Positions 197 through 37,657 of a DNA stretch of 64,000 bases are shown piece after piece. The position numbers and the translations under genes are program-made. The DNA comes from an uncultured Elusimicrobia bacterium (GTDB taxonomy: Bacteria; Elusimicrobiota; Elusimicrobia; UBA1565; UBA9628), in contig CAYHPY010000005.1 of assembly GCA_964358485.1 (NCBI GenBank), forward strand, positions 3,950 through 67,949, read 5' to 3'. Under the pieces are notes generated by a model. The model had not been told where the DNA came from and did not search any database. It worked only from the letters and a program-made list of their open reading frames with translations. Every line of letters begins with the position of its first letter. Positions within the stretch are counted from its first letter, which is position 1.

Positions 197-396
197 GGGC
201 CGAATGCCTCCCTCTCCAAGTAGTGTAACAGCCCGACGCCCCGGGGGCCATGGCGACCGTCATAGAGGCGGCTCGAGAGCGTGGGATTGTGCACCGGTTT
301 TACTCTAACACTTGGCCGAATGGGCGGCCATTCTCTTTTGCTCCGCAAATTAGATTTCTTTCCCGAGATAGATTGGTGTTTACTGGAAAGCGCCAC

Positions 397-7925: not shown

Positions 7926-9118
7926 GCGGCTGAAACGCCGTCATGCAACACATTTGCCTTTACAGAGATTTTTGGCGGGGTTTCGACCCCCAAAATGCGC
8001 CCTCCCGCCCCCAATTGGAACTTGCGGCCCCCCCAAGAGACCGTCCCCCCGGTCCAACCCAGGATCCAAACCAATGAATTCCATAGGTCATGAAGGGGTA
8101 TCAACGGCAGCCAGGCCCGAAAATAGGGGTGATAATTTCCAGAACCGATCCAGGCGGCCGTGGCCACCCGGTTGGCGGCGGTCACAAGCAACGCCGCCCC
8201 GCCAAAAGCCGGCGGGGCGAAAAGGGCGTAGACCGCGGCCCAGGTCACTCCATGGGTGAGGATCATGCCCAAATACCCCCCGGGGGTGGTGAAGCGCATG
8301 GTCCGGACCCAGCGGATTTGGTGGGCCAGATAGGCGCTCCAGCCGTAGCGGTCCATTTCAATGTCGATCCAATAGGGGAGAAGTTGAACCTGAAATCCCA
8401 GCCGTTTGATTTTTTCGGCCAGCCGGAAATCCGAATGGATGCAGTCGGCCAAGGCCTCGAAGCCCCCGAGCCGCTCGAGCAGGTCGCGCTTGACGGCCAA
8501 GGTGGCTCCCAGGCCGAAATCCACGGGAGCGGCCCAAGCCCGCAGGAGCATGGCCGGATTGTAACAGGTCTGGATGTACAGGGATTCCAGGACCGCCCAG
8601 AAACCGCGCGGCTCGCGGCACCGATACGGGCAGGTCACCAGGCCCACCGCCGGGTCCCGCAGGGGCGCCAGGACCCGCTTGAGATAGTCCGGGGCCACCA
8701 TGGTGTCACCGTCCAATAAGACGATCCAGGAATGCTTGGCGCGTTTCAAGGCCCCGGCGTGGTTGGCTTCCTTGGGATTCGGCCATTTTCCCTCCGCCGC
8801 GTAGGCGACCTCGAGGTCCGTTCCCGGAAATTCCTTTTTGATTTGTTCAACCGCGGGAAAGGCCGCGAGGTCCCCCCGCTCGACGGCCACGAGAATTTGA
8901 AAAGAGGGGTAGTCCAGGGAGCACAAACGGCGGAGGGTTTCTTCCAGGGCGCGGGGGGCGCCCTTTAACGGCAAAATAAGACTAACCCCCGCCGAAGGCG
9001 GGTGGAAATCTTTTGGAACGATTTCGGGAACGGAACAAAAAAGACGCCGAACGGCAAAGGCCGAGATCAAGAAATATAGATTCCCAAAAAGAACTGGGAA
9101 CAGGAGAAGGATCTCCAT
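7922..9118 (-). CDS. GT2/GT21 ceramide glucosyltransferase-like (HpnI-like) membrane glycosyltransferase
   Basis: NPKEAN, LLDGD, SDF and the QIRW (QxxRW) motif; N- and C-terminal TM segments. Confidence 0.85.
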   Translation of the reverse strand: MEILLLFPVLFGNLYFLISAFAVRRLFCSVPEIVPKDFHPPSAGVSLILPLKGAPRALEETLRRLCSLDYPSFQILVAVERGDLAAFPAVEQIKKEFPGTDLEVAYAAEGKWPNPKEANHAGALKRAKHSWIVLLDGDTMVAPDYLKRVLAPLRDPAVGLVTCPYRCREPRGFWAVLESLYIQTCYNPAMLLRAWAAPVDFGLGATLAVKRDLLERLGGFEALADCIHSDFRLAEKIKRLGFQVQLLPYWIDIEMDRYGWSAYLAHQIRWVRTMRFTTPGGYLGMILTHGVTWAAVYALFAPPAFGGAALLVTAANRVATAAWIGSGNYHPYFRAWLPLIPLHDLWNSLVWILGWTGGTVSWGGRKFQLGAGGRILGVETPPKISVKANVLHDGVSAA

Positions 9119-9126
9119 AGGAGATC

Positions 9127-10452
9127 TTAAAATTCGCTGAAATCCCGCATCTTATCCAAATTGCGGGCGACCTTCATCTGCAGGAGATTGACGTTCCAGG
9201 ACGCGAAATGGGATTCCCGGTACGGGATCGGCAGGCGGCGGACCGTGGACCGGAGGGAGTAGAATTCCCGGCGGATTTTGGCGACCCTTTCCAGCAGGCC
9301 CTGAGGAGTGAAGCGCAGGGGCTTGAAATGGCAGGACAGGCCGGGCCAGCGCTCCAGGTTTTCCTCGTCGATGATCCGCCCCTCGGCCTTCATCTTTTCA
9401 TAGACCCCGGTTCCCCGCAGGGGCACGAGGATGTTGAAATAGGCGGCCGGGACCTTGTGCTCTTCCAAAAATTCCATGGTCGCCGGAAAGACGCTCTCAT
9501 CGTCGGTGTCGGTCCCGAACACGAAGTTGAGCGAGAAGCTGATATCCCGGCGGCGCAGGTTGCCGATCATATGGACGAACTCGTGGGCCTTGTTGAAATT
9601 CTTGTTCATTCCGCGCAGGGTCCGTTGGTCGATGCTTTCGGCCCCCGTGTTGACGTGGAGCAGGCCCGAGCGCCGGGCCAGATCCATGAATTTCTCATCC
9701 ATGCAGAAATGGGCCGAGAACAAGGTGGACCAGCGGACCTTCAGGGGGATGAGGGCCTCCATCAGCTCCATGGCCTTGGTCTTGTCCCCGGAGAACTGGC
9801 TGGCCGCGAAAAAGATGTGACGGCTGCCGCAGCGCTTGACGTCGTCCACAATCTCCTCGGTCGGGCGCACCCGCCAGCCGTAATCTCCGGACAGGCGGCG
9901 TTCCGCGCAGAAATCGCAAGTGAAGGGACAGCCCCGGGAGTGGAGGATGACGTAGGGCCGGTAGAAGACGTATTTCTTCGGGTCCAGGAGGTCCCAGCGC
10001 GGGGCGGGCATGCCGCGCAGGTCCGCCGGACGGTCCCGGCGGTAGAACTTCTGGAGGCGCCCGGCGGCCGCGTCCTCCAGCATCCGGGGGAAAATCTCCT
10101 CGCCCTCACCGACGCAGATGCCGTCGGCGTGAGGGGCGGCTTCCTCATGGAAGAAGGTCATGTGGGGGCCGCCGAGCAGGACCTTGACCCCCCGCCGGCG
10201 GAACTCATCGGCGATCTCGTAGGCCCGAAGGGAGGTCACCGTGCGCACCGCGATGCCCACGACGTCGGCCCGCGTGTTGTAGTCGACCCTCTCCGTCGCG
10301 TCGTCGATGACCGACACCTCCCAATGCTTGGGCGCCAAGGCGGCCATATAGGGCAGAACGGCCCCGACCAGTTTCCGCTTGGGGAACCGATACGGGACTC
10401 GGACATCGCGGCGGCTGTAGCCCGTCGCTTGGATCAGGAGGAGTTTAGGCAT
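9127..10452 (-). CDS. Cobalamin-binding radical SAM protein
   Basis: B12 domain (LLGGPH...DGICVGEGE), SRGCPFTCDFC, TGAES, FVFG. Confidence 0.9.
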   Translation of the reverse strand: MPKLLLIQATGYSRRDVRVPYRFPKRKLVGAVLPYMAALAPKHWEVSVIDDATERVDYNTRADVVGIAVRTVTSLRAYEIADEFRRRGVKVLLGGPHMTFFHEEAAPHADGICVGEGEEIFPRMLEDAAAGRLQKFYRRDRPADLRGMPAPRWDLLDPKKYVFYRPYVILHSRGCPFTCDFCAERRLSGDYGWRVRPTEEIVDDVKRCGSRHIFFAASQFSGDKTKAMELMEALIPLKVRWSTLFSAHFCMDEKFMDLARRSGLLHVNTGAESIDQRTLRGMNKNFNKAHEFVHMIGNLRRRDISFSLNFVFGTDTDDESVFPATMEFLEEHKVPAAYFNILVPLRGTGVYEKMKAEGRIIDEENLERWPGLSCHFKPLRFTPQGLLERVAKIRREFYSLRSTVRRLPIPYRESHFASWNVNLLQMKVARNLDKMRDFSEF

Positions 10453-10527
10453 GACGGATGAGGAAGAGAAATTTTACCAGGAACCGTCCCCCTGGCCATC
10501 GGACAACTGTGCCGTGGATGAGAAACC

Positions 10528-11274
10528 TCACGACCGGACCCGGAGACTCGCCATCAGGCGCAAAGCCGCCGCCGCGTTGCGCAGACGGGCCCGAAGTCCC
10601 GCCGCGAGCTTGCTTTCCCCCCGCTCCCGCGGCAGGTAGCGGACGGGGAATTCCACGATTCTCAGGCCCTCGACTCGGGCGGCGTGCAGGACGAAAAGGT
10701 CGAAGGTAAAATCCAGCGGCCCCGCCGAGAGCCGCCCGATCAAATCCCGCCCGAAGAGCTTGGGCTGGGCGTTTATGTCGGGGGCCCGGCGAGGACTTCC
10801 GGGACCGGCCTCGGCGCTGGAAAGCCCCAGGCGCCAGGCAGAAAGGCGGCTGAAGCCCCAGGAAACGAACCGCTCCAGGGCGCCCCGCGGACCTTCGCGC
10901 CGTCCCATCACCAGGCATGGACCACTCGGGGTTTCGCGGAGATAAATGTCCCGGGCGGTCCAAATGTCATCGGGCGGGCACTGCAGGTCGGCGTGGGTGA
11001 AGGCCACGATCGGGGCCAGCGCGGACTCCAGCCCCCGGCGCAGTCCGTCCCCGTATCCCCGGTTGATTTCCACGCGCAGGACGCGGAGGAATGAATTCCC
11101 CGGAGACCGCAGAAGCGCGGCGAGGATCTCCGGAGTGGCGTCCTGGGAACCGTTATCGACCAGAATCAGCTCGAAAGCCGCGCGGCCGGAAAGCGCCCGG
11201 AATCGTTCGACGAGCGGCTCTAAGTTTCCCGCCTCGTTGTAGCAAGGGACGACGACTGAAAGTTCAGGCCGCAA
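10528..11274 (-). CDS. Family 2 glycosyltransferase (Dpm1-like)
   Basis: SVVVPCYNE, VDNGSQD, NRGYG, ADLQ, R..GESK. TTG start. Confidence 0.9.
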   Translation of the reverse strand: MRPELSVVVPCYNEAGNLEPLVERFRALSGRAAFELILVDNGSQDATPEILAALLRSPGNSFLRVLRVEINRGYGDGLRRGLESALAPIVAFTHADLQCPPDDIWTARDIYLRETPSGPCLVMGRREGPRGALERFVSWGFSRLSAWRLGLSSAEAGPGSPRRAPDINAQPKLFGRDLIGRLSAGPLDFTFDLFVLHAARVEGLRIVEFPVRYLPRERGESKLAAGLRARLRNAAAALRLMASLRVRS

Positions 11275-13407: not shown

Positions 13408-15632
13408 TTGACTACTTCGACCGAAACCGTTTTTGATCGGGCTTCGAACCCGTTCTTAGCATAGACCGCTCGCAGGCGGTAAATTCCCAGCCCGTCAAAT
13501 TTAAACTTCGTTTCAAATTCCCGAAACGGATTTTCGGGAACGGATCGGGCCGTCAACAGATATTCCCCCGGCGCCAAGGACAAGTCGAGCGAGTCTTCGG
13601 CCTTGGCGCCGGATTTGGACCTGCACCGCAAGGCCTTTTCATTTCCCCCGGGCGCGGTAACGAAGAACTTGAAACCGTGAAATCCGCAGTTGAACCCCGT
13701 TTTCACAAAAGAGGGAGCCCGCTCCTTGAAAGCCACGGGCGAGTCCCCCGTATTCTGGAACTCCAGACGGTACCGCAAAGGTTCTCCGGCCATGATTTTG
13801 GTCTTTTCGATCAGAAACAAAAGCGTCAGCCTCGGCGCTCCCGACTCGGGAGTCCACCCCGGTCGCGGCTGAAGAACGAGAGCCTTTCGATCTTGAACTT
13901 CCGTCAGACTCGGGGGATCGAAAGGCTCGCCCTCAACCACGGTCAGCCGCCGGTCCGCCGGCACCGCGCCCAAAGACTGCTCGCGCCCGGAGGGCCAGCG
14001 GATGCGGACCTCTTCGACGCGCTCCCAGCGCCCCAGCCCGAAATGGCAGGCCAGGCTGTTCATGGACAAATAGCTTCCCCCCGCCGTGACCAGGCAGGAC
14101 TGGGTCCGCCCGTCGCCGGTCCGCACCGCCACCTTCGCCCCCACCGCATCCCGGTTGGATTTTCGCCCGCTCAAGCGGACTTGGAGCCAGTGATTGGAGT
14201 TTTGGACGGCGTTGCGCAAGAGCAGGGCCGGACCTCCGTTGGCGTTGACCGCGATGTCCAGCCGCCCGTCCCGGTCGTAATCGGCGACCGCCGCCCCGCG
14301 GGCGTTGATCGAAGCCTGGAAGGCGGGGCCCGCCGCCGCCGTGACCTCGGTGAAGGTCCCGTCCCCGTCGTTGCGGAACAACTGCATCCTTTGAGGAACC
14401 AAGAGCTCCGGAGCCTCGCGTTGTTCAAAGGTGGAGCCGTTGACGATCAGGATGTCCTGTCGGCCGTCGTTGTCGTAGTCCAGAAACGCCGTCCCCCAGC
14501 CGACGAAGTCGAGCGTCGTCTCGCCCAGCCCCGCCGGGGTGTTGCCGTCGGAGAAATGCAGGCGCTTGCCCGGGGCGTCCTTGGGGCGCTCGCGTAGGAG
14601 GTTGATGTAGAGGCTTTTTTCATGGGCGATCCATTGGGTCACGATCATGTCCCAATCCCCGTCCCCGTCATAATCCCCCAAGCCCGCCCCCATCGAACTT
14701 TTGACGTCCCCCAGCCAGGCCTCGTAGGTGGCGTCCGTGAAGCGCCCCCCGCCGGCGTTTCGAAACAGCGCGTCGGGCGTCACATCGTCGGCCACGTAGA
14801 TATCCGGGCGCCAGTCCTCATCCAGGTCGGCGAAGAGGCACTGCATGCCTTTGCGATCGTCCGCCGCCACCCCGGCCGAGCGGGCGGCCTCCGCGAAGCG
14901 GCGCCCGCCCAGATTCCGGTAAAGGCTGTTTCCGGCGGAGGGAAAGGCGAAGGGGCTCAAGGTGACCGGGATGCTGAAGCCCCCCCGCTCCACGGCGGAG
15001 GTCCGGGGCGGGTAATTCCGGTCGAACGCCACATAGCGCGGAACGTACAGATCGATCCGGCCGTCGCCGTCATAATCGGCGGCGCAGGCCCCGGCCGACC
15101 AACGGGCATCGGCCAGGCCCGCCTCGCGCGTGATCTCGGTGAATTTCCAATTCCCGTCGTTGCGGTACAGGAGGCTTCCTTCCCAACCCGTGACCAGCAG
15201 ATCCGGTCGGCCGTCATTGGCGAAGTCGGCGAATAAACAGCCCATGCCCGAACCCCGGCCGCCCACCCCGGCCTTCTGCGTGACGTCTTCAAAAGTCCCG
15301 TCGCCCCTATTCCGGTAGAGGGCGTTTTGCGGGTTTGAACCGGGCTCGGCTTTCTTGGCATCCAAGGGCCGCGCGTTGACCAGATACAGATCCTCGCGGC
15401 CGTCCCCGTCCGCGTCCCCCCAACAGGCCCCCGACCCCATGTCCTCCGGGAGCAGGGACGAGCGCCGCCCTTGGAAATGGCGAAAGGAGATTCCGGCCGG
15501 TGTCGCGGCGTCCTCAAAAAACCCCGGCGGCGCGGCCGCCCCCGAGGCGGGCCCCGAGGCGCGCCGGGACAAAAGCGCCCCCCCGGCCAGCAGGGCCGCC
15601 AAGGCCCCCGCCCACGCCCCGGCCTTGCCCAT
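13404..15632 (-). CDS. CRTAC1/ASPIC-UnbV family FG-GAP beta-propeller protein with an extra C-terminal Ig-like domain
   Basis: Repeated DxDxDGxxD loops (DADGDGRED, DYDGDGRID, DYDNDGRQD, DYDRDGRLD); UnbV segment GGSYLS...HFGLG...IRWPSG; N-terminal anchor. Start is ATG 15632 or TTG 15638. Confidence 0.9.
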   Translation of the reverse strand: MGKAGAWAGALAALLAGGALLSRRASGPASGAAAPPGFFEDAATPAGISFRHFQGRRSSLLPEDMGSGACWGDADGDGREDLYLVNARPLDAKKAEPGSNPQNALYRNRGDGTFEDVTQKAGVGGRGSGMGCLFADFANDGRPDLLVTGWEGSLLYRNDGNWKFTEITREAGLADARWSAGACAADYDGDGRIDLYVPRYVAFDRNYPPRTSAVERGGFSIPVTLSPFAFPSAGNSLYRNLGGRRFAEAARSAGVAADDRKGMQCLFADLDEDWRPDIYVADDVTPDALFRNAGGGRFTDATYEAWLGDVKSSMGAGLGDYDGDGDWDMIVTQWIAHEKSLYINLLRERPKDAPGKRLHFSDGNTPAGLGETTLDFVGWGTAFLDYDNDGRQDILIVNGSTFEQREAPELLVPQRMQLFRNDGDGTFTEVTAAAGPAFQASINARGAAVADYDRDGRLDIAVNANGGPALLLRNAVQNSNHWLQVRLSGRKSNRDAVGAKVAVRTGDGRTQSCLVTAGGSYLSMNSLACHFGLGRWERVEEVRIRWPSGREQSLGAVPADRRLTVVEGEPFDPPSLTEVQDRKALVLQPRPGWTPESGAPRLTLLFLIEKTKIMAGEPLRYRLEFQNTGDSPVAFKERAPSFVKTGFNCGFHGFKFFVTAPGGNEKALRCRSKSGAKAEDSLDLSLAPGEYLLTARSVPENPFREFETKFKFDGLGIYRLRAVYAKNGFEARSKTVSVEVVK

Positions 15633-29468: not shown

Positions 29469-30596
29469 TCAGCGGGCCAAGTAATCCAAGACGAAGGAAT
29501 AATCCCGTCCCGCGGGGATGACCTGCGAGCCGACGACCTTGAGGCCGGCGGCATCGAAGGCGGCGACCTTCTCTTTCATGGCGGTTTCGGCCTCGCTCTC
29601 GAAAGAGAAAGTCTCCTGCGCCTGATAGGTTTTTACCGTAACGGAAGGGTAGGAAGAAGAACCTCGGTAAATGAACTCCACCAGGAAATCCACCGCGAAG
29701 GAATAGTCCCGCCCGGCCTTGCGGACATAAGAAGAAATGGGCGCGACCCCGGCGGAAGCAAAGACGGCCAAGCTTCGGCGGGCCGCTTCCTCGGCGCCGC
29801 TCTCGAAGGAAAAAATCCCGCGGGCCTGGTAGGACGCGGACGCGTAGCGCGGGCGCGGGCCGTGGCGGTTGGTCCTCAAAGCATATTCGATCTCCACGGA
29901 ATAATCCCGGTCGGGGCGGCGGACCGCGCGCGTGCGCAGGACCGGAATGCCGGCTTGGCGAAAGCGCCCCGCCATTTCCTGGGCGGCGGCCTCGGCCCCG
30001 CTCTCGAAGGTATGTTTGCCCGAGAGGTGCTTCTCGATGCGGACCTCGTCGGTCTGGGCCGGGCGCAGGAGATTGGGAACAAAATAAGCCAGCTCGAAGC
30101 CGTGGTCGCGGCCCGCGGGGACCAGGGCGGAGGCGACGACCGTCAACCCGGCCGAGCGGAGATTGGCCTCGGCCGCGTTCAAGGCCTCCTGGGCGTCGCT
30201 TTCCCGCCAAAAAGACGCGGGGCCGCGATAGGCGCTCAGGATCAGCGCCTGAGGATTTCCAGAGCCGGGCTGGAGCGTGGGAAGGTATTCGACGGCAAAG
30301 CCGTGCTTGCGGTTGGCCTTCTGCGTGGTGCGGCCGCCCAGCACCGTGATTCCGGCCGCGCGAAACGCCGCCAGGCGGTTTTCCAGCTCCTCCCGCGCGT
30401 CGCTTTCGAAGGTGAATTCTTCCTCGGTCTCGTAGACCGCGATCTCGACGGGCCGGGGCGGCTCCGGGGAAGGGCGCTCGTAGCCCGAGGGGGCGAGGCT
30501 CTCCAACTGGACCATGGCCGGGATCGCCCCCGACGGAGTCGAGAAAGCGGGAGTCGAGAAGGCGAGGACGGCGGCCGCGAGGATTGTCGATTTCAT
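29469..30596 (-). CDS. Secreted protein with five ~55-65 aa repeats (F.FES.A...AAG..V...RD(Y/H).F...Y)
   Basis: Signal peptide MKSTILAAAVLAF; five visible repeat units; GGAG SD and TG-G-TACAAT promoter upstream. Confidence 0.8.
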   Translation of the reverse strand: MKSTILAAAVLAFSTPAFSTPSGAIPAMVQLESLAPSGYERPSPEPPRPVEIAVYETEEEFTFESDAREELENRLAAFRAAGITVLGGRTTQKANRKHGFAVEYLPTLQPGSGNPQALILSAYRGPASFWRESDAQEALNAAEANLRSAGLTVVASALVPAGRDHGFELAYFVPNLLRPAQTDEVRIEKHLSGKHTFESGAEAAAQEMAGRFRQAGIPVLRTRAVRRPDRDYSVEIEYALRTNRHGPRPRYASASYQARGIFSFESGAEEAARRSLAVFASAGVAPISSYVRKAGRDYSFAVDFLVEFIYRGSSSYPSVTVKTYQAQETFSFESEAETAMKEKVAAFDAAGLKVVGSQVIPAGRDYSFVLDYLAR

Positions 30597-30686
30597 GAAA
30601 TTCTCCAAAGACTGCTCGGGAAGATTGTACCACAGGACCGGCCCCCCGGAGAGGCGGGAGCGCGGCGGACGTGTTCCTGGGAAGGC

Positions 30687-31133
30687 CTAGGCCGGAGGGC
30701 GTTGCCGGCGGGCCCGGAGGCGCTCAACGAAGAGCTCGAGGTATTTTTCCTCCTTGCAGACCTCGCTGAGGATTTTGGCCGCGTCGCTGAGGCTGACGAT
30801 CCCGACCAGTTTCCCCATTTCCGTGATGGGAATATGGCGGAAGTCGTTCTTGGCGAAGACCGAGAAGACCGTCGCCAGGGGAGCCTCGGTGACGAGGGAT
30901 ACGGGCTTCTCCGTCATGACCTCGACGAGCCTGGTTTTTGCCGGATCCTTCCCGGCCGACACCACCCGGTTGAGCAGGTCGCGTTCGGAGAAAATCCCCA
31001 CCGGCCTGCCGCCGTCGAGAATGACCGCGCAGCCGACCTTGGCTTTGGTCATCATCTGGCAGGTCTGGAGAACCGTATCGGACATCGTCGCCGCGAGGAC
31101 TTCGCAGGCGAGCAGGCTGGCGTCGTGAGACAT
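30687..31133 (-). CDS. CBS domain pair protein
   Basis: VGCAVILD...VGIFSERD and FRHIPI...LVGIVS..D. Start re-placed at ATG 31133. Confidence 0.9.
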   Translation of the reverse strand: MSHDASLLACEVLAATMSDTVLQTCQMMTKAKVGCAVILDGGRPVGIFSERDLLNRVVSAGKDPAKTRLVEVMTEKPVSLVTEAPLATVFSVFAKNDFRHIPITEMGKLVGIVSLSDAAKILSEVCKEEKYLELFVERLRARRQRPPA

Positions 31134-31297
31134 AAACCACCTCCACGCTCGGGACATTCCGAGGAGGCGGTCTCGGGCGCCGGCGGCGCCCCGGGGCCTG
31201 GACAGGGGTTGCGTCCCCATGAGTTTAGCCGGATTTCTCCGACGGCGCAAGGCCCCCTCCCCGACGAGGCGGGAGCGCCCCGTAAGATCCCCCGGAA

Positions 31298-31323
31298 GGG
31301 CGACTGTTTGAATACAGTCGCCC
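31298..31323. repeat. Intergenic hairpin (10-bp arms), inverted relative of 29433-29460
   Basis: GGGCGACTGT-TTGAAT-ACAGTCGCCC. Confidence 0.7.
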
Positions 31324-31379
31324 CCCGTTCACACCTTAAACCTGGAAACTTCCGTCTTTACCTCTTATACTATCGAGGC

Positions 31380-32216
31380 ATGAGCCCCTCCGACCCGGAA
31401 CCGGAAAGACAAAACCCCCGCCCCGGCGCGGGGGACTCTGATTCCCAAGCAAACCGGGGCGGGGCGTATGTTCCTCTCCCTCCAAACCCAACCCCAACTC
31501 CCTCTAAGAAACTAGCCCTGGCGGCGGGAGCTCTGGCCGCTCTGCTGGCCGGCACCGGGATTTTTCAGATGCTGCGCGCGCCCGCGCCGCCGGTCCAGCC
31601 GCCGGCCGAAACGGGACTGGCCCTGGCCGCGAAAACCAAAAAAGTTTTTCTGGTCAGCATGAAAGACTTGGACGCGCAGGCCACCTCCCGCGCGCGCCAG
31701 ACCATGGGCGCTCCCGGAACGGCCTCGGCCGGGGAGCCCTCCCGGGATCCGTCGATGTTGTCGGCCCCCGGCCCGGGGGTGGTTCGGACCGACGGGCTCC
31801 GCGCGCCCGAACTCCGCCCGGCTCCGGCGCCGCCCGCCCAAGCCCCGGACGGTTCGGGCGTGCTGGACGCCCTCTCCGCCGCGCCGCAAACCGTCAAAGA
31901 GCAGGTCCGCAACGGGTCCATGAGCCTGTTCACCTTCCACTTCGTGGATTTCGTGGCCGAGGATGGAGACATCGTGGGCGTGAGCGTGGACGGCCGGGAC
32001 CTGGGGCGGGTGACCTTGAGCCACGCCGGGGCCAGCCTCACCATCCCGCTCAAGCCCGGGGAACAGCACGTCATCCGCTTCACGGCTCTGCACGACGGCG
32101 GGGGCGGAGTGACCTTCGGCGCGGTGTCCTCCGTGGGACGGCTCAAGACCAAGGTCATGACGGTGGGCGAATATGACGAGTGGGTCATCGCCTTCCAAAG
32201 CGAGCTCGGCCGGTGA
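31380..32216 (+). CDS. Single-pass membrane protein with Pro-rich linker and C-terminal beta-rich domain
   Basis: ATG 31380, 8 nt after TATACT. TM segment LALAAGALAALLAGTGIF; C-terminal EDGDIVGVSVDG...GGGGVTFG. Confidence 0.75.
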   Translation: MSPSDPEPERQNPRPGAGDSDSQANRGGAYVPLPPNPTPTPSKKLALAAGALAALLAGTGIFQMLRAPAPPVQPPAETGLALAAKTKKVFLVSMKDLDAQATSRARQTMGAPGTASAGEPSRDPSMLSAPGPGVVRTDGLRAPELRPAPAPPAQAPDGSGVLDALSAAPQTVKEQVRNGSMSLFTFHFVDFVAEDGDIVGVSVDGRDLGRVTLSHAGASLTIPLKPGEQHVIRFTALHDGGGGVTFGAVSSVGRLKTKVMTVGEYDEWVIAFQSELGR

Positions 32217-32227
32217 CCAAGACCTCG

Positions 32228-33343
32228 ATGCATCCGCTGTTCATGCTCATGGCGGTCGTGGGCATCGGCTCCGGGCTGTACTCCCTTTACCAGCGCGTCC
32301 CGGTGGTGGCTCCCGCGACCCTTTTTATCAGTCTGGTCGGCCTGATGGTCCGAACCTGGCAGCTCACCCGCGAGAAGAGCCAGGACGCCTCCCCCTCCGG
32401 AGGAATCGACTTCGCGGCCCTCCGGGCCAAGGATTTCCGGCGCTACGCCCCGTGGCTCAAGGACAACGTCCGCGGCCACGATCCGGTGATCGATTCCCTG
32501 ACCCGGCGGCTCCAGCAGGGGTTGGAGCTGGCCGGCGCCAACCGGACCTTGGGAACCTTTCTTTTGGTGGGGCCGACGGGAACCGGCAAGACTTTCCTGG
32601 CGGAGATGGCGGCCCGGGCGCTTTATCCGGGCAGCGAGCCGCTGATCCTGCGCATGAACCAGTACAAGCACTCCGACGACGTGTTCACCCTCCTGGGCCC
32701 CCCGCCCGGCTCGGCGGGCTACGAGGTCGGCGGGGCCCTGACGCGGCCGGTCCTGGAGAATCCCCAGCGGGTCATTCTTCTTGATGAAATCGACAAGTGC
32801 CACCCCGACATCCGGGACTGCCTCTACAACATCCTGGACACCGCCCAGTGCCGGGAGAAGAGCTCGGGGCGCCCGGTGCATTTCCACGCCTGCGCCTTTT
32901 TCGCCACCTGCAACTCCGGCGTGGAAAGCCTCCGCCAATTGGAGCTGACCAAGCCCGACGCGGCCACCCGCATCGGGCGGGCCCGGGACGCCTTGGCGCG
33001 CTCCGGGGGCTTCGAGAAATCCTTCCTGGCGCGTTTCGACGAGATCTTCCTCATGGACGAGCTCCCCCTCATGAGCGTGGCCGAGGTCGCCTGCCTGCAA
33101 TTGGCCAAGCATTGGAAGGAGTACGGCATCGAGGTGACCTACGCCTCCCCCGAGATCCTGGTGGACGCCATCCGCCGCAACTCCGAGTTCTCCGAGTACG
33201 GGGTGCGCCAGCTTTCTCATCTGATCCAAGGCATGGCCGATCCCTGGATCGAGGCCGCGCGCAAGGGAGGGGCGAGCAAGGTCCGGCTGGACGTGGAGCC
33301 CGGGACCGGGAAGATCAACGTCGTCCTCCAGGACGCCGCGTGA
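32228..33343 (+). CDS. Membrane-anchored single-domain AAA+ ATPase, ClpB NBD2 (AAA_2) type
   Basis: Two N-terminal hydrophobic segments; GPTGTGKT; pore loop GYEVGG; LLDEIDKCH; ATCN; LARFD; GVRQL. Confidence 0.88.
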   Translation: MHPLFMLMAVVGIGSGLYSLYQRVPVVAPATLFISLVGLMVRTWQLTREKSQDASPSGGIDFAALRAKDFRRYAPWLKDNVRGHDPVIDSLTRRLQQGLELAGANRTLGTFLLVGPTGTGKTFLAEMAARALYPGSEPLILRMNQYKHSDDVFTLLGPPPGSAGYEVGGALTRPVLENPQRVILLDEIDKCHPDIRDCLYNILDTAQCREKSSGRPVHFHACAFFATCNSGVESLRQLELTKPDAATRIGRARDALARSGGFEKSFLARFDEIFLMDELPLMSVAEVACLQLAKHWKEYGIEVTYASPEILVDAIRRNSEFSEYGVRQLSHLIQGMADPWIEAARKGGASKVRLDVEPGTGKINVVLQDAA

Positions 33344-34647
33344 CCAAGGAACTTCACGAAGACCCCTGGATCCAGGTCTTCGCCCTCCTGGCCCTGCTCT
33401 CCGGGGCGCTGACCTTGCACGGTTTGACCCAGCGGATCATCGGCATCGGCGCGGGACGCCCGTCCCCCGCGCCTTCCGGGCCGCGGCCTACCGGCGCGGG
33501 CGCCGAGGACGCCTCGGAAAGCCGCATGAAAATCCTCGCCCCCGGCGGGAGCCTGGCCGAGGTCGGCGCTCCTTCCCTCACCGGCCAGCCGTCCCTGGAG
33601 GACGTCCTGCTCGGCCGCTCGCCCACGGCGTCCTCCCCCGCGGCGGCGCCCTTGCTGGGAGGAACGGGCGTGCAAAAAACCATCCACGCCAAGACTCCGG
33701 GCAAATGGATCGTGGACGCCGCCAAGGGGGCCGACTCCGATACCGACGACCTCTCCGCGGCGCTGGCCAGCGTATCCGCCGGGGACTCCGTGAAGGTCCG
33801 GCCCGGAACCTACAAGGGCAATCTGCTCATCGACAAGCCCGTCACGGTCGAAGGGCTGGGGTCCTCTCCCGGGGCCGTCATCGTGCAGGGCTCCCAATCC
33901 CAAACCGTGAGCGTGGCCGGCGCCGCCGTCGTTCTGCGCAACCTGACCGTCAAGCACGACGGCCTCAAGGCCACGCGCGCCATTCTCAATCAAAAAGGAA
34001 CTTTGACTCTGGACCGCGTGACCATCCAATCGGCCCCCGGCGCCCTGGGGGTGGAAACCCGCGGCGGGATCGTGGACGCCACGGGCCTCAAGGTCGAATC
34101 GTCCTATGTCGGCGTCGGGGGCTCGGAGGGCGCCACCCTCAAGCTCGCCTCCACGGAGATTTCCGCGCCGGAGGCCGTCGGGGTGGCCCTGGCCCGGGGC
34201 GGATTGCTGGAACTCTCCGCCTCGACCATCCGGGGCTCCGGCGGCCACGGAATCCTCCTTTACGAAGGGGCCGAGGCCAAGGTCGTAAAAACCTCGGTCA
34301 GCGGCAGCAAGAACTGCGCCTTGAGCATCCAGAACGCCTCGGCCAAGCTCGACGGGGTCCGCTTCAACGACAACGATTGCGGCGTCATCTTCCCGGCCGG
34401 GGGCTCCTTGGAGTCCGACCGAGGGGATTTCGGCAGGAATGCCAAGGGGCCGCTCTCCTACCAAGAGGCTTTTCGCGCCCTCATCGAGGTCAAGGGCACG
34501 GCCAACCGCCCGGCGTTGGCGCTCGGGCAAATCGCCGGTTTCGACCAGGGCCCCGCGGGCGCCGCCCCCAGCCTGGGAAGCCGCCGGGACTTCGGGCGTT
34601 TCGACATTTTCAAAGCGGATCCTCTCCGAAAAAAGAAACGCCAGTGA
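33340..34647 (+). CDS. Membrane-anchored right-handed beta-helix protein (paralogue 1)
   Basis: GTG start overlapping the previous stop. N-terminal TM, 'VKVRPGTYKG.L.I' pectin-lyase-fold cap and repetitive beta strands. Confidence 0.82.
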   Translation: MTKELHEDPWIQVFALLALLSGALTLHGLTQRIIGIGAGRPSPAPSGPRPTGAGAEDASESRMKILAPGGSLAEVGAPSLTGQPSLEDVLLGRSPTASSPAAAPLLGGTGVQKTIHAKTPGKWIVDAAKGADSDTDDLSAALASVSAGDSVKVRPGTYKGNLLIDKPVTVEGLGSSPGAVIVQGSQSQTVSVAGAAVVLRNLTVKHDGLKATRAILNQKGTLTLDRVTIQSAPGALGVETRGGIVDATGLKVESSYVGVGGSEGATLKLASTEISAPEAVGVALARGGLLELSASTIRGSGGHGILLYEGAEAKVVKTSVSGSKNCALSIQNASAKLDGVRFNDNDCGVIFPAGGSLESDRGDFGRNAKGPLSYQEAFRALIEVKGTANRPALALGQIAGFDQGPAGAAPSLGSRRDFGRFDIFKADPLRKKKRQ

Positions 34648-35849
34648 AGCGCCTTGCCGAGGACGCCTGGTTTCAAATCTTCCTGCTTCTGGCCCTGCTC
34701 TCCGGGGCGATGACGGCGCATAGCGGACTGCTGAGGGTCGGGCGGGCCGGCGCGCCGCGCGCATTTTGGCGCTCCTGGACGGGGCGCGCGCTGGAACCCC
34801 GGGTGCCGGGCAAGTGGGTGGTGGACGCGGCCTCCGGCGCGGGCGCCGACACCTCCAACCTGGAAGAGGCGCTCGAGGCGGCCCGCCCGGGAGGCGAGAT
34901 CCTGATCCGGCCCGGCGCCTACTCCCTGAGCGCGGCGCTCAACCGCCCCCTGACTTTGACCGGACAAGGGGCGGGGCCGGAGGAAACGACCCTGACGGCA
35001 TCCTCCTCCACGGCGCTGGCGGTGACCATGGGCAAGGTGACCCTGCGCAACCTGACCGTGGCCGTCGACGGTTCGGGAGGCGCCGCCCTGCGGGTGGACG
35101 GCGGAGAATTGTCCCTGTCGCGGGTGCGCCTGCGCGCCGCCGCGGGTTCCCTCGGGGCGGAGGTCCTCCGCGGGCGGCTGAGCGCGGAGGAAACCGTTTT
35201 CGACGGAGAAGGGACGGGAGCCCTTATCCTCGGACGCGCGTCCCGCGGCGAATTCAACGGCGCATTGTTCTATAATACGGGCCATGCCTTGCGCGTCTCG
35301 GACGGAGCCCAAGCGATGGTGAGCAGTTCCACCTTTAAGGACAACGCCGGGGCCTTCTCCGCCGACGCCGAGGGCTCCATCTCGGACCTCGGCTCGACCT
35401 TGCGCAACAGCCGGGAATCGGCCGTGCTCGCGGTGGACCGTTCCAAGGTCCAGCTTTCGGGCACCCGCATCGAGGGGTCGGGCAAGCACGGGGTCTCCCT
35501 GGGCCAAGGCGCCACCGCGGCCCTGCACCGGGTCTCGATCACCGGCAGCGGCGGGGCGGCCGTGTCGGTCTCGGGAAAGGCGGAGCTTCACGCCATCACC
35601 ATCCAGCTCCGGGACAACCGAAGCTGCGCCCTGGAGCTCGAAAACGCCGAGGCCTTCCTCGACGCCGCCGTCGTCCAGGGAAATCAATGCGGCGTGGCCT
35701 TTTTCGGCCGGGGCGCCCTGCAGTCCAACGCCGGGGATTTTACCGGAAACTCCCGCGGCGCCCTGCTTTACTCGGAAAAATTCAAATCCAAGATCTTTTT
35801 GAAAGGCGCCGGGAATCTTCCCCCGGATTTCCAAGGCCTGTTCCGCTAA
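34644..35849 (+). CDS. Membrane-anchored right-handed beta-helix protein (paralogue 2)
   Basis: GTG start overlapping the previous stop. Shares D.W.Q.F.LLALLSGA, PGKW.VDAA and IRPG.Y with paralogue 1. Confidence 0.82.
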   Translation: MKRLAEDAWFQIFLLLALLSGAMTAHSGLLRVGRAGAPRAFWRSWTGRALEPRVPGKWVVDAASGAGADTSNLEEALEAARPGGEILIRPGAYSLSAALNRPLTLTGQGAGPEETTLTASSSTALAVTMGKVTLRNLTVAVDGSGGAALRVDGGELSLSRVRLRAAAGSLGAEVLRGRLSAEETVFDGEGTGALILGRASRGEFNGALFYNTGHALRVSDGAQAMVSSSTFKDNAGAFSADAEGSISDLGSTLRNSRESAVLAVDRSKVQLSGTRIEGSGKHGVSLGQGATAALHRVSITGSGGAAVSVSGKAELHAITIQLRDNRSCALELENAEAFLDAAVVQGNQCGVAFFGRGALQSNAGDFTGNSRGALLYSEKFKSKIFLKGAGNLPPDFQGLFR

Positions 35850-35859
35850 GAGGAAAACC

Positions 35860-36909
35860 ATGTCCGACCTGAACAAGATGACCGACTGGGACAAGCTCAA
35901 GGGGATGCTGGAGAAGGAGCCCCTCGACAAGAAAAGCGAGGTGATCGACGAGGCCAAGCTCTTGGACCACCTCCAGTCCCGGGTCAAGGGGCAGGACGAG
36001 GTCCTCCGGGACGTGGCGCGCCTGATCCGCCTGAGCTGGATGAAGGAGAAGCGCGGCGCCCCCATCTGCAACCTCCTCTTCCTGGGCCCGACCGGCACCG
36101 GCAAGACGGAGCTGGCCAAGGCCATCACCGAGTACCTTTACGAGGACGAGAAGAACATGCTGCGCTTCGACTGCTCGGAGCTGGCCAGCCCCGAGATGGC
36201 GGCCAACCGCCTGACCGGCTCGGCGCAGGGCTACAAGGGTTCCGACCAGGGCGGACAGCTCACGCGGCCGATGTTCGCCAACCCCAAGCGCGTGGTACTT
36301 TTCGATGAAATCGAAAAGGCCCATCCGCTGGTGTTCGACCTTTTCCTTCAAATGATGGGCGAGGGGCGCCTCTCCGAGCAGAGTACGGGCAAGACTGCGG
36401 ATTTCACCCAGTCGATCATCATCATGACCTCCAACGCCCACGCCGAGGAAATCACCAAGCTGGTCGAGGGCATCGACGACTACCACAAGATCCTCAACGC
36501 CATCAAGGGCTACCTGGCCGAGGCGCAGGTCTTCCGGCCGGAGATCCTGGGACGCATCGACAAGGTCTACATCTTCAAGCCCCTGCAGGGCATGGTCATC
36601 GCCGAGATCGCCCTGCTCAAGATCGCCAAGCTCGCCAAGGAATACGGAATGAGCGTGGAGTTCGTCGCGCCGGAGCTCCTCATCCAGGCACTGGAAGCCA
36701 ACGTCAAGGTCAGCCGCTTCGGCATCCGGGAGCTGGAGCGGATCCTGTTCGACCTCTTCGCCAACCTCCTGGTCGAAGCCCGCGCCAAGGGCGCCAAGAA
36801 GGTGGCCTTCGACGTGGACGACGCCGGGACAATCCAGTGCCGCGACGCCACCCCCAAGCCGCCGCCGGCGGCCGGGAAGGCGCAGGCCGACGGCGCCCCT
36901 AAGAAATAG
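35860..36909 (+). CDS. Soluble single-domain AAA+ ATPase, ClpB NBD2 (AAA_2) type
   Basis: RVKGQD; LFLGPTGTGKT; GYKGSDQGG; LFDEIEKAH; MTSN; FRPEILGRID; GIREL. Confidence 0.9.
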   Translation: MSDLNKMTDWDKLKGMLEKEPLDKKSEVIDEAKLLDHLQSRVKGQDEVLRDVARLIRLSWMKEKRGAPICNLLFLGPTGTGKTELAKAITEYLYEDEKNMLRFDCSELASPEMAANRLTGSAQGYKGSDQGGQLTRPMFANPKRVVLFDEIEKAHPLVFDLFLQMMGEGRLSEQSTGKTADFTQSIIIMTSNAHAEEITKLVEGIDDYHKILNAIKGYLAEAQVFRPEILGRIDKVYIFKPLQGMVIAEIALLKIAKLAKEYGMSVEFVAPELLIQALEANVKVSRFGIRELERILFDLFANLLVEARAKGAKKVAFDVDDAGTIQCRDATPKPPPAAGKAQADGAPKK

Positions 36910-37657
36910 CCTTTTCCGCCGCGGCGCGGGCCATGACCACGTCGTCGGACCAGATCGAGCGGATGCCCCGGGCCACCAGCCACTCCACTTGCTCGGGCGT
37001 GTTGGCCACCCCCCCGCTGACCGGAATGCCCGCGGCCTGGGTGCGGCCCACCTCCCCCGGCAGGTCGGCCAGGGCGCAGGCCGACTGAAACAGGTGGCGG
37101 GTAAACCCCCGTTGGTCCCAGCCCACGCAGGCGGCCGACACCCCCAAGGCCGTACAGCGCTCGGCCATCCTCCACGGCAGTTGGGGCATCACCGCGGTCC
37201 GGATGCGTGGGTCGAATTTCTTGGCCAAGCGCAGGAGGCGCCCGGAGGTCCAGAAGGCCAGCACGAAGGTCCGGGCCCAGGCTCGCGCGGCCTCCAGCCG
37301 GCGGGCGACGGCCTCGACCAGTCGCTCGTCGTCCTCGTGAAAATCGATGAAACACTCCACGGAAGGACGGGCCGCCAGCCACGAAAGCAGGTCGTCCAGG
37401 TGCGGGATGGCGCAACGGCCGCCCACCCGCAGCTCGCGCAATCGCGCCCAGGAAAGGCCGCGTACGGGCCCCGCCCTCCCCGTCAACCGCCCGGCGTCGT
37501 CGTCATGGAATAGCACGGGCTCCCCGTCGCCGGTCAGGCGGACGTCCACCTCCAGCGAATCGGCCCCGTCCCGGAGCGCGGCCTGGGCCCCCTCCAGGGT
37601 GTTTTCGATTCCGCGCGCTTTGCCGCAGCGGTGGGCGAGAATCTTGACCCCGCTCAC
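36899..37657 (-). CDS. Glycerophosphodiester phosphodiesterase
   Basis: AHR, ENT, LEVDVRLT.DG..VLFHD. GTG start overlapping the upstream stop. Confidence 0.85.
   Translation of the reverse strand: MSGVKILAHRCGKARGIENTLEGAQAALRDGADSLEVDVRLTGDGEPVLFHDDDAGRLTGRAGPVRGLSWARLRELRVGGRCAIPHLDDLLSWLAARPSVECFIDFHEDDERLVEAVARRLEAARAWARTFVLAFWTSGRLLRLAKKFDPRIRTAVMPQLPWRMAERCTALGVSAACVGWDQRGFTRHLFQSACALADLPGEVGRTQAAGIPVSGGVANTPEQVEWLVARGIRSIWSDDVVMARAAAEKAIS

Follow-up and report, generated by a model that had tools for sequence, protein, structure and literature searches.

Gene content of the locus

The window, a 64,000-nucleotide stretch of DNA from an uncultured Elusimicrobia bacterium, carries five co-directional genes on the + strand (g1 to g5, positions 31380–36909), which represent one copy of a conserved and apparently hitherto undescribed bacterial cassette. 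The gene coordinates bear out the same-strand operon described in a sequence-only reading of this DNA, with gaps of 11 nt and 10 nt and two 4-nt GTGA overlaps. The single -10 box that it had placed upstream corresponds to a predicted promoter-like site, which is the sole sigma-70-like match across positions 30500–37600 (mean in shuffled sequences, 0.3). The features are as follows:

31343–31371, + strand: promoter-like site TGGAAA-17-TATACT, predicted from a consensus match, ending 9 nt upstream of the g1 ATG
31380–32216, + strand: g1, class-A bitopic partner, 278 aa (gene call, hydropathy, AF2)
32228–33343, + strand: g2, membrane-hairpin AAA_2 ATPase, 371 aa (Pfam, hydropathy, motifs)
33340–34647, + strand: g3, class-B partner 1, anchored beta-helix, 435 aa, GTG start (Pfam Beta_helix)
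34644–35849, + strand: g4, class-B partner 2, anchored beta-helix, 401 aa, GTG start (Pfam, AF2)
35860–36909, + strand: g5, soluble AAA_2 ATPase, 349 aa (Pfam, motifs)

The cassette appears to combine two ClpB-like ATP motors, one of them fixed in the inner membrane, with single-pass membrane proteins that share an anchor and carry an exchangeable repeat domain. It is nowhere described in the literature, in PADLOC or under database names, and the earlier remark that no named system has this architecture holds in all three.

The two ATPases

Both g2 and g5 were matched by Pfam AAA_2 (1e-27 and 5e-43, respectively), and the Pfam search detected in neither of them an NBD1, N, M or protease domain, in agreement with the earlier reading. 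The NCBIfam matches cover only positions ~550–840 of ClpB, ClpA and ClpV, with scores far under the cut-offs. Two adjoining hydrophobic segments, at residues 3–21 and 23–44, form an N-terminal hairpin in the hydropathy profile of g2. The g5 protein is without any hydrophobic segment or IGF/L loop, and it carries the conserved N-terminal peptide MTDWDKL (aa 7–13).

In g2, Walker A GPTGTGKT is located at aa 115–122 (nt 32570–32593), Walker B LLDEID at aa 184–189, sensor-1 TCN at aa 227–229, the Arg finger R269 in FEKSFLARFDE (nt 33011–33043) and sensor-2 at R327. The corresponding elements in g5 are Walker A at aa 76–83, Walker B LFDEIE at aa 147–152, sensor-1 TSN at aa 190–192, the Arg finger R232 in FRPEILGRIDK and sensor-2 at R290. 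Inspection of 36 g2-family and 31 g5-family sequences, numbered via an alignment to E. coli ClpB, showed that both families keep Walker A, Walker B, the sensor-1 Asn, the Arg finger (ClpB R756) and the sensor-2 Arg. The position of the GYVG tyrosine (ClpB Y653) holds Y or F in 31 out of 31 g5-family sequences, and the GYKG loop of g5 in the window is intact (aa 124–127, nt 36229–36240), whereas the window's g2 has a degenerate GSAG loop (aa 161–164, nt 32708–32719) with Ser at this position, which is mixed in the g2 family (S9, Y6, M6, Q3, others; n=36).

The sequence-only reading had credited both ATPases with the full set of motifs, including a GY-type pore loop. Its account of the gene structure, the domains, the anchor and the other shared motifs stood, but the pore loop is a property of g5 and not of g2. 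A GY seen in g2 was rejected as the pore loop, since it aligns with ClpB Y656 rather than Y653. Because g2 has no conserved pore-loop tyrosine, it is, judging from the alignments, unlikely to be a threading equal of g5.

In the phylogeny, the g2 and g5 families make up one clade apiece (support 100/99), and both clades lie outside the canonical D2 cluster with E. coli ClpB, E. coli ClpA and two ClpV proteins. The two ATPases are thus not fragments from within the ClpA, ClpB or ClpV clades.

The anchor proteins and the bitopic partner

The g3 and g4 proteins are 39% identical, and each has one N-terminal hydrophobic segment according to hydropathy. In g3, the anchor EDPWIQVFALLALLSGALTLHGL (aa 7–29, nt 33358–33426) comes after a short acidic tail and is followed by an 88-aa linker rich in P/A/S/G, with a right-handed beta-helix beginning at PGKWIVDAA (aa 120). 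In g4, the anchor EDAWFQIFLLLALLSGAMTAHSGLL (aa 6–30, nt 34659–34733) is followed by a short Arg-rich linker and a beta-helix that extends from PGKWVVDAA (aa 55) to ~aa 390. Sequence alignments confirmed the common anchor and the PGKW.VDAA pattern. Pfam Beta_helix matched both proteins (8e-6 for g3 and 4e-10 for g4), as did the NosD N-cap model TIGR04247 (E values of 9e-15 for g3 and 2e-8 for g4; the g3 match scored 54 bits versus a cut-off of 300). The AF2 model of g4 (pLDDT 92, pTM 0.84) consists of a helix at 2–33, a disordered segment at 33–44 and a beta-helix at 53–390, and its Foldseek matches include GH87, AlgE4/6, tailspikes, PL6 and NosD (7o0y, 7osf).

The conserved element of these proteins is the N-terminal anchor, with the motif D/N-x-W-x-Q...S-G, and the domain that follows can be exchanged. 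The cassette is thus not defined by the beta-helix, which corrects the sequence-only reading: Sel1 repeats stand behind the same anchor in the Pirellulales and in one Verrucomicrobiota locus, and a BNR/Ycf48-type propeller in the Gemmatimonadales. A search of the 4.4-Mb genome with an anchor HMM recovered just three proteins, all encoded by cassettes, and loci carry between 1 and at least 3 copies of the anchor protein. No conserved polar residues were found in the beta-helix body, which makes a conserved active site there unlikely. The tails that precede the anchor in g3 and g4 are 8–14 residues long. The Arg-rich stretch behind the anchor in this window would favor a beta-helix in the cytoplasm; the kinds of domain (NosD/CAZyme-like beta-helix, Sel1, BNR propeller) favor the periplasm, and the charge bias flanking the anchor is inconsistent over 28 orthologues.

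One explanation of the shared anchor is that it serves as a recognition tag for a biogenesis chaperone, such that the ATPases hold the aggregation-prone repeat proteins unfolded or soluble in the cytoplasm and pass them on to the membrane to be inserted or exported. These clients, long solenoids with differing folds, have the anchor as their sole strongly conserved part, which is confined to the cassette, and the nearest kin of the ATPases are disaggregase and unfoldase D2 modules, all of which is consistent with such a role. However, most beta-helix, Sel1 and BNR proteins that are secreted are exported unaided, the flanking ORFs of the cassette include no Sec or YidC genes, and the need for g1 and for a second, membrane-anchored ATPase would be left unexplained. 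We consider this explanation unlikely.

Since homologues of g1 are found in 27 cassette loci, it is a member of the cassette, although it is missing from about one third of the loci. The protein has a single TM helix (aa 44–66; 44–65 by hydropathy) and a disordered cytoplasmic tail of ~43 aa with the conserved RGGAYVPLPP (aa 26–35, nt 31455–31484), which fits the motif G-x-A-Y-x-P-x-P; the family alignment comprises 23 sequences. Beyond the TM helix are a small alpha/beta element (aa 88–110), a Pro-rich insert and an Ig-like beta-sandwich (aa 182–272), for which the AF2 model has a pLDDT above 90 (mean for g1, 72). No match to g1 was found in Pfam, NCBIfam or PADLOC, and Foldseek gave weak matches only, to the ChiA N-domain, CARDB, CBM and MmpS5.

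Distribution and co-inheritance

The cassette was identified in ~30 loci from five phyla, the Elusimicrobiota, Verrucomicrobiota, Planctomycetota, Gemmatimonadota and Bdellovibrionota. All 12 loci from relatives and ~30 of 37 cassette loci over the five phyla share the order g2, anchor protein(s), g5, in which g1 may be present or absent, so that the gene order, whose conservation the earlier reading had left to be checked, is retained at this distance. The Pirellulales and Gemmatimonadales have the permuted order g5-g1-g2-anchor protein, and g5 is not nearby in a few loci (L030, L032 and L039). The same gene order in ~30 independent loci argues that the five-gene arrangement is not due to chance. 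The flanks are unrelated between loci (103 ORFs and 97 Pfam families, each in at most 3 loci). Furthermore, the pairwise identities of g2 and g5 are strongly correlated (Mantel r=0.91; 0 of 2000 permutations as high) and their phylogenies are congruent; such co-inheritance is also expected from simple linkage and is no proof of contact.

These patterns bear on the idea that there is no system here at all, and that two orphan ClpB-like proteins act as chaperones in general proteostasis and merely lie beside unrelated envelope genes. The database labels would suit this idea, being "ATP-dependent Clp protease ATP-binding subunit" or "AAA family ATPase", and every name is generic among the g2 relatives, which form at least 381 clusters of 90% identity at E<=1e-60. 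It is nevertheless already contradicted by the conserved linkage, that is, by the synteny over five phyla together with the translational coupling and the congruent phylogenies, and canonical Clp proteins are encoded separately in the same genome. We regard it as very improbable.

In comparison with the nearest relative, the ATPases are 89–95% identical (g5, 95%) versus 71% for the beta-helix proteins, and within the latter the anchors are 85–90% identical versus 69–73% for the beta-helix. The outer domain evolves ~3x faster than the ATPases. The dN/dS values are 0.035 for g5, 0.10 for g2, 0.08 for g1, 0.21 for g3 and 0.25 for g4; the values for g3 and g4 indicate purifying selection overall, not diversification.

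A role in envelope conflict or defence, in which fast-evolving repeat domains sense or decoy molecules from phages or competitors and the ATPases respond, could account for the rapid evolution of the outer domain and for the spread across phyla with unrelated flanks. The patchy distribution (16 of 41 related genomes), the presence of two copies in two genomes and the likeness of the ATPase cores to PADLOC PDC-M37B and DolB (g5 E values of 8e-30 and 4e-22) also point in this direction; in the window's own genome the second copy is truncated. However, the PADLOC matches are limited to the common AAA core and a DolA-type partner is absent, Pfam identified no effector domain of any kind in the cassette, be it a nuclease, a toxin or a protease, and the flanking genes are housekeeping genes rather than defence islands. 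Likewise, the dN/dS values speak against it, and no close relative was found in the plasmids searched. A defence role seems quite unlikely to us.

A possible membrane machine

We tentatively favor the hypothesis that the cassette encodes a self-contained inner-membrane machine for ATP-driven extraction or force transmission, to which we assign a probability of about 0.4. The N-terminal hydrophobic hairpin would fix g2 in the membrane and pack on the anchor helices of g3 and g4 and on the TM helix of g1, and the soluble g5 may be recruited by g2 into a mixed ring or a stacked ring. As the sole subunit with a conserved pore-loop tyrosine, g5 would be the force-generating translocase, whereas g2, which has kept all ATPase motifs and lost the tyrosine, could be a membrane adaptor or regulatory ATPase. 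ATP hydrolysis might then pull on the cytoplasmic ends of the partners, namely the g1 tail and the short g3 and g4 tails, with the outcome that the partners are extracted from the membrane for turnover or release, or that force is passed to the repeat domain on the far side. The contacts, the ring composition, the pulling direction, the topology of g3 and g4 and the purpose of the machine are all conjectural in this scheme, and so are the heteromeric ring and the insertion, extraction or remodeling of the beta-helix proteins that the sequence-only reading proposed.

Clp/Hsp100 D2 rings use the GYVG tyrosine to thread polypeptides, and FtsH, Msp1 and other AAA+ proteins that are anchored in the membrane pull membrane proteins out by the tail. 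We take the synteny, the unrelated flanks, the co-inheritance, the division of labor at the pore loop and the conservation of the anchor to speak for the machine, as we do the beta-helix without conserved polar residues, the varying anchor-protein copy number and the evolutionary rates. Against it, FtsH requires a tail of ~20 residues, and with 8–14 residues the tails of g3 and g4 offer little length for an AAA+ pore to engage. The inconsistent charge bias leaves the topology of g3 and g4 unsettled, and g1 and g5 are not part of every locus. The cassette also has no protease or obvious channel that would account for what becomes of an extracted protein.

An alternative is mechanotransmission without extraction, in which the partners are never threaded and the ATP cycle instead shifts the membrane helices and thereby switches the conformation or binding of the periplasmic repeat domain. 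NosFY acts in this manner on NosD, as do FtsEX and MacB-type ABC systems on their periplasmic partners. The matches of g3 and g4 to the NosD N-cap, the NosD structures in the Foldseek list and the very short partner tails are consistent with this explanation, as are the intact ATPase motifs of a g2 without the threading tyrosine and outer domains that resemble binding scaffolds with no conserved catalytic residues. Yet a canonical threading loop in all 31 g5 sequences would be needless for mere conformational coupling, NosF/NosY-like genes are absent, the NosD family score is far under its cut-off, and we know of no case of mechanotransmission by Clp-D2 modules. We therefore regard it as rather unlikely.

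Comparison with known systems

Both ATPases align over the whole D2/NBD2 module of ClpB/Hsp104 and ClpA/ClpC, with which they share Walker A/B, sensor-1, the Arg finger and sensor-2, and ClpC/ClpB structures are matched by g5 at E ~1e-48 and by g2 at ~1e-33. They differ in having one AAA module without an N domain, NBD1, M-domain or ClpP-binding loop, in forming separate clades outside the canonical D2 and, for g2, in the hairpin and the lack of a conserved pore tyrosine. Stand-alone ClpB-like ATPases are also found in Dodola (DolA/DolB) and the PADLOC candidate PDC-M37 (g5 core E values of 4e-22 to 8e-30), but the match to g5 is limited to the AAA core, ~170 of 375–518 model positions, and the cassette has neither DolA/DUF6414 or another such partner nor a defence context.

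In NosDFY(L), a cytoplasmic ATPase is coupled across the membrane to a right-handed beta-helix of the NosD type. However, its motor is an ABC transporter rather than an AAA+ protein, NosD is without this anchor helix, and no nos genes are located near the cassette. Torsin with LAP1/LULL1 resembles the cassette in pairing an AAA+ protein related to D2 with an AAA-like partner anchored in the membrane, an asymmetric arrangement where one of the two falls short of a full motor. Torsins, which work in the ER lumen, have no Arg finger of their own and obtain it from LAP1, whereas both cassette ATPases keep the finger, and the Pfam Torsin score for the cassette is 21.9 versus a cut-off of 27.

Skd3 (human CLPB), which is among the sequence matches of the ATPases (8zrs, 7ttr), is a relative of Hsp100 that functions as a single ring with D2 alone and no NBD1. 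It carries ankyrin repeats, which the cassette lacks, and serves as a soluble disaggregase in the intermembrane space of mitochondria; the cassette instead has two paralogous ATPases, one of them membrane-anchored, and co-encoded partners. Finally, FtsH and Msp1/ATAD1 have an N-terminal membrane anchor followed by one AAA+ ring on the cytoplasmic face. They belong to the classical AAA clade rather than to AAA_2, FtsH carries an M41 protease domain that is absent from the cassette, and they consist of one ATPase species with no dedicated co-encoded clients, whereas the cassette has two ATPases. For the pulling of bitopic proteins, FtsH and Msp1/ATAD1 provide the best functional analogy.

Organization of the cassette

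The cassette consists of five open reading frames, defined by an ORF listing and frame checks:

31380-32216, + strand: g1, class-A bitopic partner
32228-33343, + strand: g2, membrane-hairpin AAA_2 ATPase
33340-34647, + strand: g3, class-B partner with an N-terminal anchor and a beta-helix
34644-35849, + strand: g4, class-B partner of the same type
35860-36909, + strand: g5, soluble AAA_2 ATPase

The tight packing on one strand that was first noticed in the sequence was borne out by the frame checks, with gaps of 11 and 10 nt and two GTGA start/stop overlaps. Furthermore, the sigma-70-like site located 9 nt upstream of the g1 ATG is the sole one in the segment 30500-37600, and the adjoining genes are both on the opposite strand, the upstream one encoding a CBS-domain protein and the downstream one a GDPD phosphodiesterase. 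Because of the spacing, the overlaps, the single promoter-like site and the orientation of the neighbors, we consider g1-g5 to be one compact unit. The GC content is uniform at about 0.67. In the same region, a 379-aa protein encoded at 29469-30608 on the minus strand begins with a stretch resembling a signal peptide and contains about four repeats of about 90 aa with the signature F.FES.AEA...AG..V...AGRDYSF, to which Pfam gives no match.

Searches against Pfam identified AAA_2 in g2 and g5 and Beta_helix in g3 and g4, and gave no match for g1. By hydropathy, g1 is predicted to have one transmembrane segment and g2 an N-terminal two-segment hairpin; g3 and g4 have a single N-terminal segment apiece, and g5 is devoid of such segments. 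The AlphaFold2 model of g4 (pLDDT 92) starts with a long helix, from which a disordered linker leads to a right-handed beta-helix; the structural neighbors are glycanases, alginate epimerases, tailspikes and NosD. The predicted model of g1 contains a disordered tail, a transmembrane helix and a C-terminal Ig-like sandwich with weak matches in the PDB to a chitinase N-domain, CARDB and MmpS5.

Two ATPases, each with a single Clp module

The D2 module begins at about residue 33 in g5 (349 aa) and residue 75 in g2 (371 aa), with PDB matches to the D2 of ClpC and ClpB at about 1e-48 and 1e-33, respectively. In NCBIfam, the similarity of both proteins to ClpB, ClpA and ClpV is confined to the second AAA module and reaches one tenth to one fifth of the family cut-offs.

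The motifs were compared in an alignment of 36 g2-type and 31 g5-type sequences with canonical Clps, for which aligned E. coli ClpB supplied the numbering. Walker A, Walker B, the sensor-1 asparagine, the arginine finger (R756) and the sensor-2 arginine are kept in both families. A GY-type pore loop had also been attributed to both ATPases, which holds for g5, where position Y653 is Tyr or Phe in all 31 sequences, but not for g2, where this position is Ser in the window and variable across the family. The GY of g2 instead aligns with ClpB Y656, and not with the threading tyrosine Y653. We also considered a loss of the arginine finger in g2, which has FEKS where ClpB has FRPE. This was rejected, since the residue changed at FEKS is R750, and R756, as located through the HMMER alignment with E. 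coli ClpB, corresponds to the arginine of INRID, which is kept in 36/36 g2 sequences.

The N-terminus of g5 carries a peptide, M-x-D-L-x-x-M-T-D-W-x-x-L, that is near-invariant in five phyla (residues 7-13 correspond to window positions 35878-35898). This peptide and the partner anchors (D-x-W-x-Q-L) have a D-W-x-x-L core in common. As pure speculation, the g5 peptide might serve for docking or imitate the partner tails.

Partner proteins with a conserved anchor and exchangeable outer domains

The proteins encoded in the middle of the cassette follow a common plan, with a short tail, a helix of the type D/N-x-W-x-Q...S-G (the anchor), a linker of low complexity and a repeat domain. When all six-frame ORFs from the genome to which the window belongs were searched with an anchor HMM, the three cassette-encoded proteins were the sole matches, and a genome-wide sorting signal of the PEP-CTERM or T9SS CTD type was therefore rejected.

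The domain scan showed that the repeat domain is exchangeable between lineages. It is a beta-helix in the Elusimicrobiota and Verrucomicrobiota, a set of 8-17 Sel1 repeats in the Pirellulales and at one locus in the Verrucomicrobiota, and a BNR/Ycf48-type propeller at one locus in the Gemmatimonadales. The beta-helix has glycanases, epimerases and tailspikes as neighbors, but an enzymatic function is unlikely because no conserved polar residue was found in its body and the fold is replaced elsewhere. One verrucomicrobial locus (L039) encodes two anchor proteins (8107-9144 and 9216-10697) with identical anchors and different outer domains, one with 8 Sel1 repeats and the other without a Pfam match; the g5 gene at this locus is a 38-aa remnant.

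At two elusimicrobial loci without an upstream g1 (L027:5734-6693 and L031:10417-11334), a g1-like protein is encoded just after g5, with the tail motif EYAPPP or QYGAPPP, one transmembrane helix, Sel1 repeats and paired cysteines (C-x7-8-C). The combination of a g1-like tail and transmembrane helix with Sel1 repeats suggests that the class-A partner may likewise have an exchangeable, periplasmic outer domain.

The nearest relative, a 4.5-kb Logan contig, carries all five genes, with both paralogs among them.

Divergence of the cassette proteins between the window and its nearest relative (dS 0.65-1.05, near saturation)
g5: 95% amino acid identity, dN/dS 0.035
g2: 89% amino acid identity, dN/dS 0.10
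g1: 88% amino acid identity, dN/dS 0.08
g3: 71% amino acid identity, dN/dS 0.21
g4: 71% amino acid identity, dN/dS 0.25

In this comparison the anchors are 85-90% identical, as against 69-73% for the beta-helices. Thus, the identity and dN/dS values indicate that the outer domains evolve about three times faster, and they are still under purifying selection.

Distribution and phylogeny

Among 41 related genomes searched, 16 contain the beta-helix gene, and at every locus retrieved from these relatives it lies between the homologs of g2 and g5. A second copy of the cassette is present in the window's own genome, on contig C175 (about 227-2745, minus strand), where a single anchored beta-helix gene (27%) comes after a g2 paralog (60% identical) and the contig ends where g5 would lie; tblastn gave no g1 homolog at this locus.

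Scanning about 186,000 species genomes with the g2 profile identified orthologs of 48-62% identity in four phyla, the Elusimicrobiota, Verrucomicrobiota, Planctomycetota and Gemmatimonadota, and diverged copies in the Bacteriovoracaceae. At about 30 of these loci, g2 is followed by the anchor protein(s) and then g5, or the genes stand in the permuted order g5-g1-g2-anchor protein; g1 homologs were found at 27 loci. In an elusimicrobial MAG (L019/L067, about L019:7310-8470), an in-frame stop splits g2 into two ORFs, which marks either a pseudogene or an error of assembly.

The phylogeny is split three ways, into a g2 family (100/99), a g5 family (100/99) and a canonical D2 clade (98/96) that includes E. 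coli ClpB and ClpA and two ClpV modules. For g2 and g5, the matrices of pairwise identity are correlated (r=0.91). Two outcomes had been named in the sequence-only reading as counting against it, a gene order not conserved in other genomes and ATPases that are mere fragments from the ClpA/B/V clades. The order or its permutation is kept in several phyla and both ATPase families fall outside the canonical D2 clade, and therefore neither of these computable tests refutes the reading. That the genes form no system at all is, in our judgment, extremely improbable. The window's genome also contains long, unusual frames with double-ring Clp modules, on contigs C85 (about 13462-14436), C25 (about 29507-30397) and C16. 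A frame of 2436 aa bears long extensions at both termini, another of 1428 aa starts with a stretch resembling a secretion signal and has a hydrophobic region at its C-terminus, and the third is a ClpC-like protein of 787 aa, all three lengths being those of the open frames.

All-against-all clustering of the loci revealed no further conserved neighbor beyond the cassette, and 103 flanking ORFs matched 97 different Pfam families. With such heterogeneous flanks, a defense island or a larger conserved cluster was dismissed. A plasmid-borne element was also considered and rejected: the best plasmid matches, at less than 35% identity, are ClpK, TssH and ClpA, and no close relatives of the cassette were found on known plasmids.

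A putative membrane-tethered machine

The host belongs to an uncultured lineage represented by MAGs. The data fit a two-part machine, in which a conserved engine at the cytoplasm and membrane (g2, g5 and often g1) would serve dedicated bitopic partners through their anchors. We hypothesize, with a probability of roughly 0.4, that g5 is the motor and g2 a membrane adaptor or regulatory ATPase, and that g1, g3 and g4 are attacked at their cytoplasmic tails, with partner extraction or force transmission as the outcome. A biogenesis chaperone is an improbable alternative.

The charge bias around the anchor is inconsistent among orthologs and in the window would even favor a cytoplasmic beta-helix. 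The types of repeat domain found in the partners favor a periplasmic location. We also thought of an ATP-powered trans-envelope machine of a kind not described so far in bacteria, although we regard this as decidedly unlikely. In an ERAD-like version with retro-translocation, membrane-anchored periplasmic receptors with a beta-helix, Sel1 (as in Hrd3/Sel1L) or propeller domain would capture a ligand, and a cytoplasmic Clp-type motor would pull on the receptors. In a version analogous to Ton/Tol, force generated with ATP at the inner membrane would reach the outer envelope by way of the anchored partners.

Clp/Hsp100 motors are known as soluble double-ring unfoldases, and the membrane-tethered AAA+ extractors FtsH and Msp1 belong to another clade. 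If true, a g5 motor paired with a g2 adaptor would represent a new class of bacterial envelope machine, consisting of a conserved mobile pair of single-ring Clp-D2 ATPases with dedicated bitopic partners, where g2 serves as membrane adaptor after loss of the threading tyrosine and the partners have in common a conserved anchor with an exchangeable repeat domain. Asymmetric AAA+ pairs such as Torsin-LAP1 would then have a bacterial model. Annotation would also benefit, because the g2 family comprises at least 381 clusters in public data (E<=1e-60) and the source names of the g2 and g5 families are those of generic Clp or AAA ATPases only.

Comparison with known systems

ClpB/Hsp104 (TIGR03346) has NBD1 and NBD2 in one chain, an M-domain and Clp_N, whereas g2 and g5 each contain one AAA_2 domain and match neither Clp_N nor any other N-terminal domain, so that the absence of NBD1 and the N/M domains noticed at the outset was upheld by Pfam and NCBIfam. 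Their TIGR03346 matches are restricted to positions 558-840 of 853; where the cut-off is 1232 bits, g5 scores 202 and g2 scores 117. The catalytic motifs of the ClpB D2 are present in both; the GYVG tyrosine (Y653) is present in g5, but not in g2. As for the IGF/IGL-type ClpP-docking loop of ClpA, ClpC and ClpX, there is no [ILMV]G[FL] tripeptide in g5, the only one in g2 is VGL at residue 37 within the membrane hairpin, and the cassette contains no clpP gene. ClpV/TssH (TIGR03345), with its cut-off of 885 bits, gave scores of 133 and 156, the two ClpV D2 modules cluster with the canonical Clps away from g2 and g5, and no tss genes are located nearby. Likewise, Peptidase_M41, a trait of FtsH, gave no match, and the FtsH model TIGR01241 (E 0.006) matched the Walker A region only.

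Torsin (PF06309) reached 21.9 bits in g5 against a cut-off of 27 and did not match g2; furthermore, Torsin is without an intrinsic arginine finger, whereas both families here keep theirs. The single D2 is a feature in common with Skd3/CLPB, but the ankyrin-repeat domain of that protein has no Ank match here.

An envelope conflict system appears quite unlikely to us. In PADLOC, the DolB and PDC-M37B matches (Dodola/PDC-M37) cover the AAA core only, at model positions of about 127-302, and g1, g3 and g4 gave no match; no DolA/M37A partner gene was matched. Toastrack/PSP and MoxR-vWA conflict systems were rejected as candidates, because their published domains and ATPase clades differ from those of the cassette.

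Conformational coupling of the NosDFY or FtsEX type, another possible reading, seems rather unlikely. The similarity to NosD (TIGR04247) amounts to 54 and 33 bits, where the family cut-off is 300, and is limited to profile positions 1-72, the Pfam NosD model (PF05048) scored 19.8 against 23.6, and there are no nos genes (nosFYL/nosZ) in the window region.

We found no description of the cassette in the literature, and the initial impression that no named system has this architecture agrees with our comparisons, in which none of the tested families or systems fits. What defines the cassette in the window is a linked set of a g2-type hairpin ATPase, a soluble g5-type ATPase that has the N-terminal MTDW peptide, and one or more proteins bearing the D/N-x-W-x-Q anchor, and the same set recurs in other phyla.
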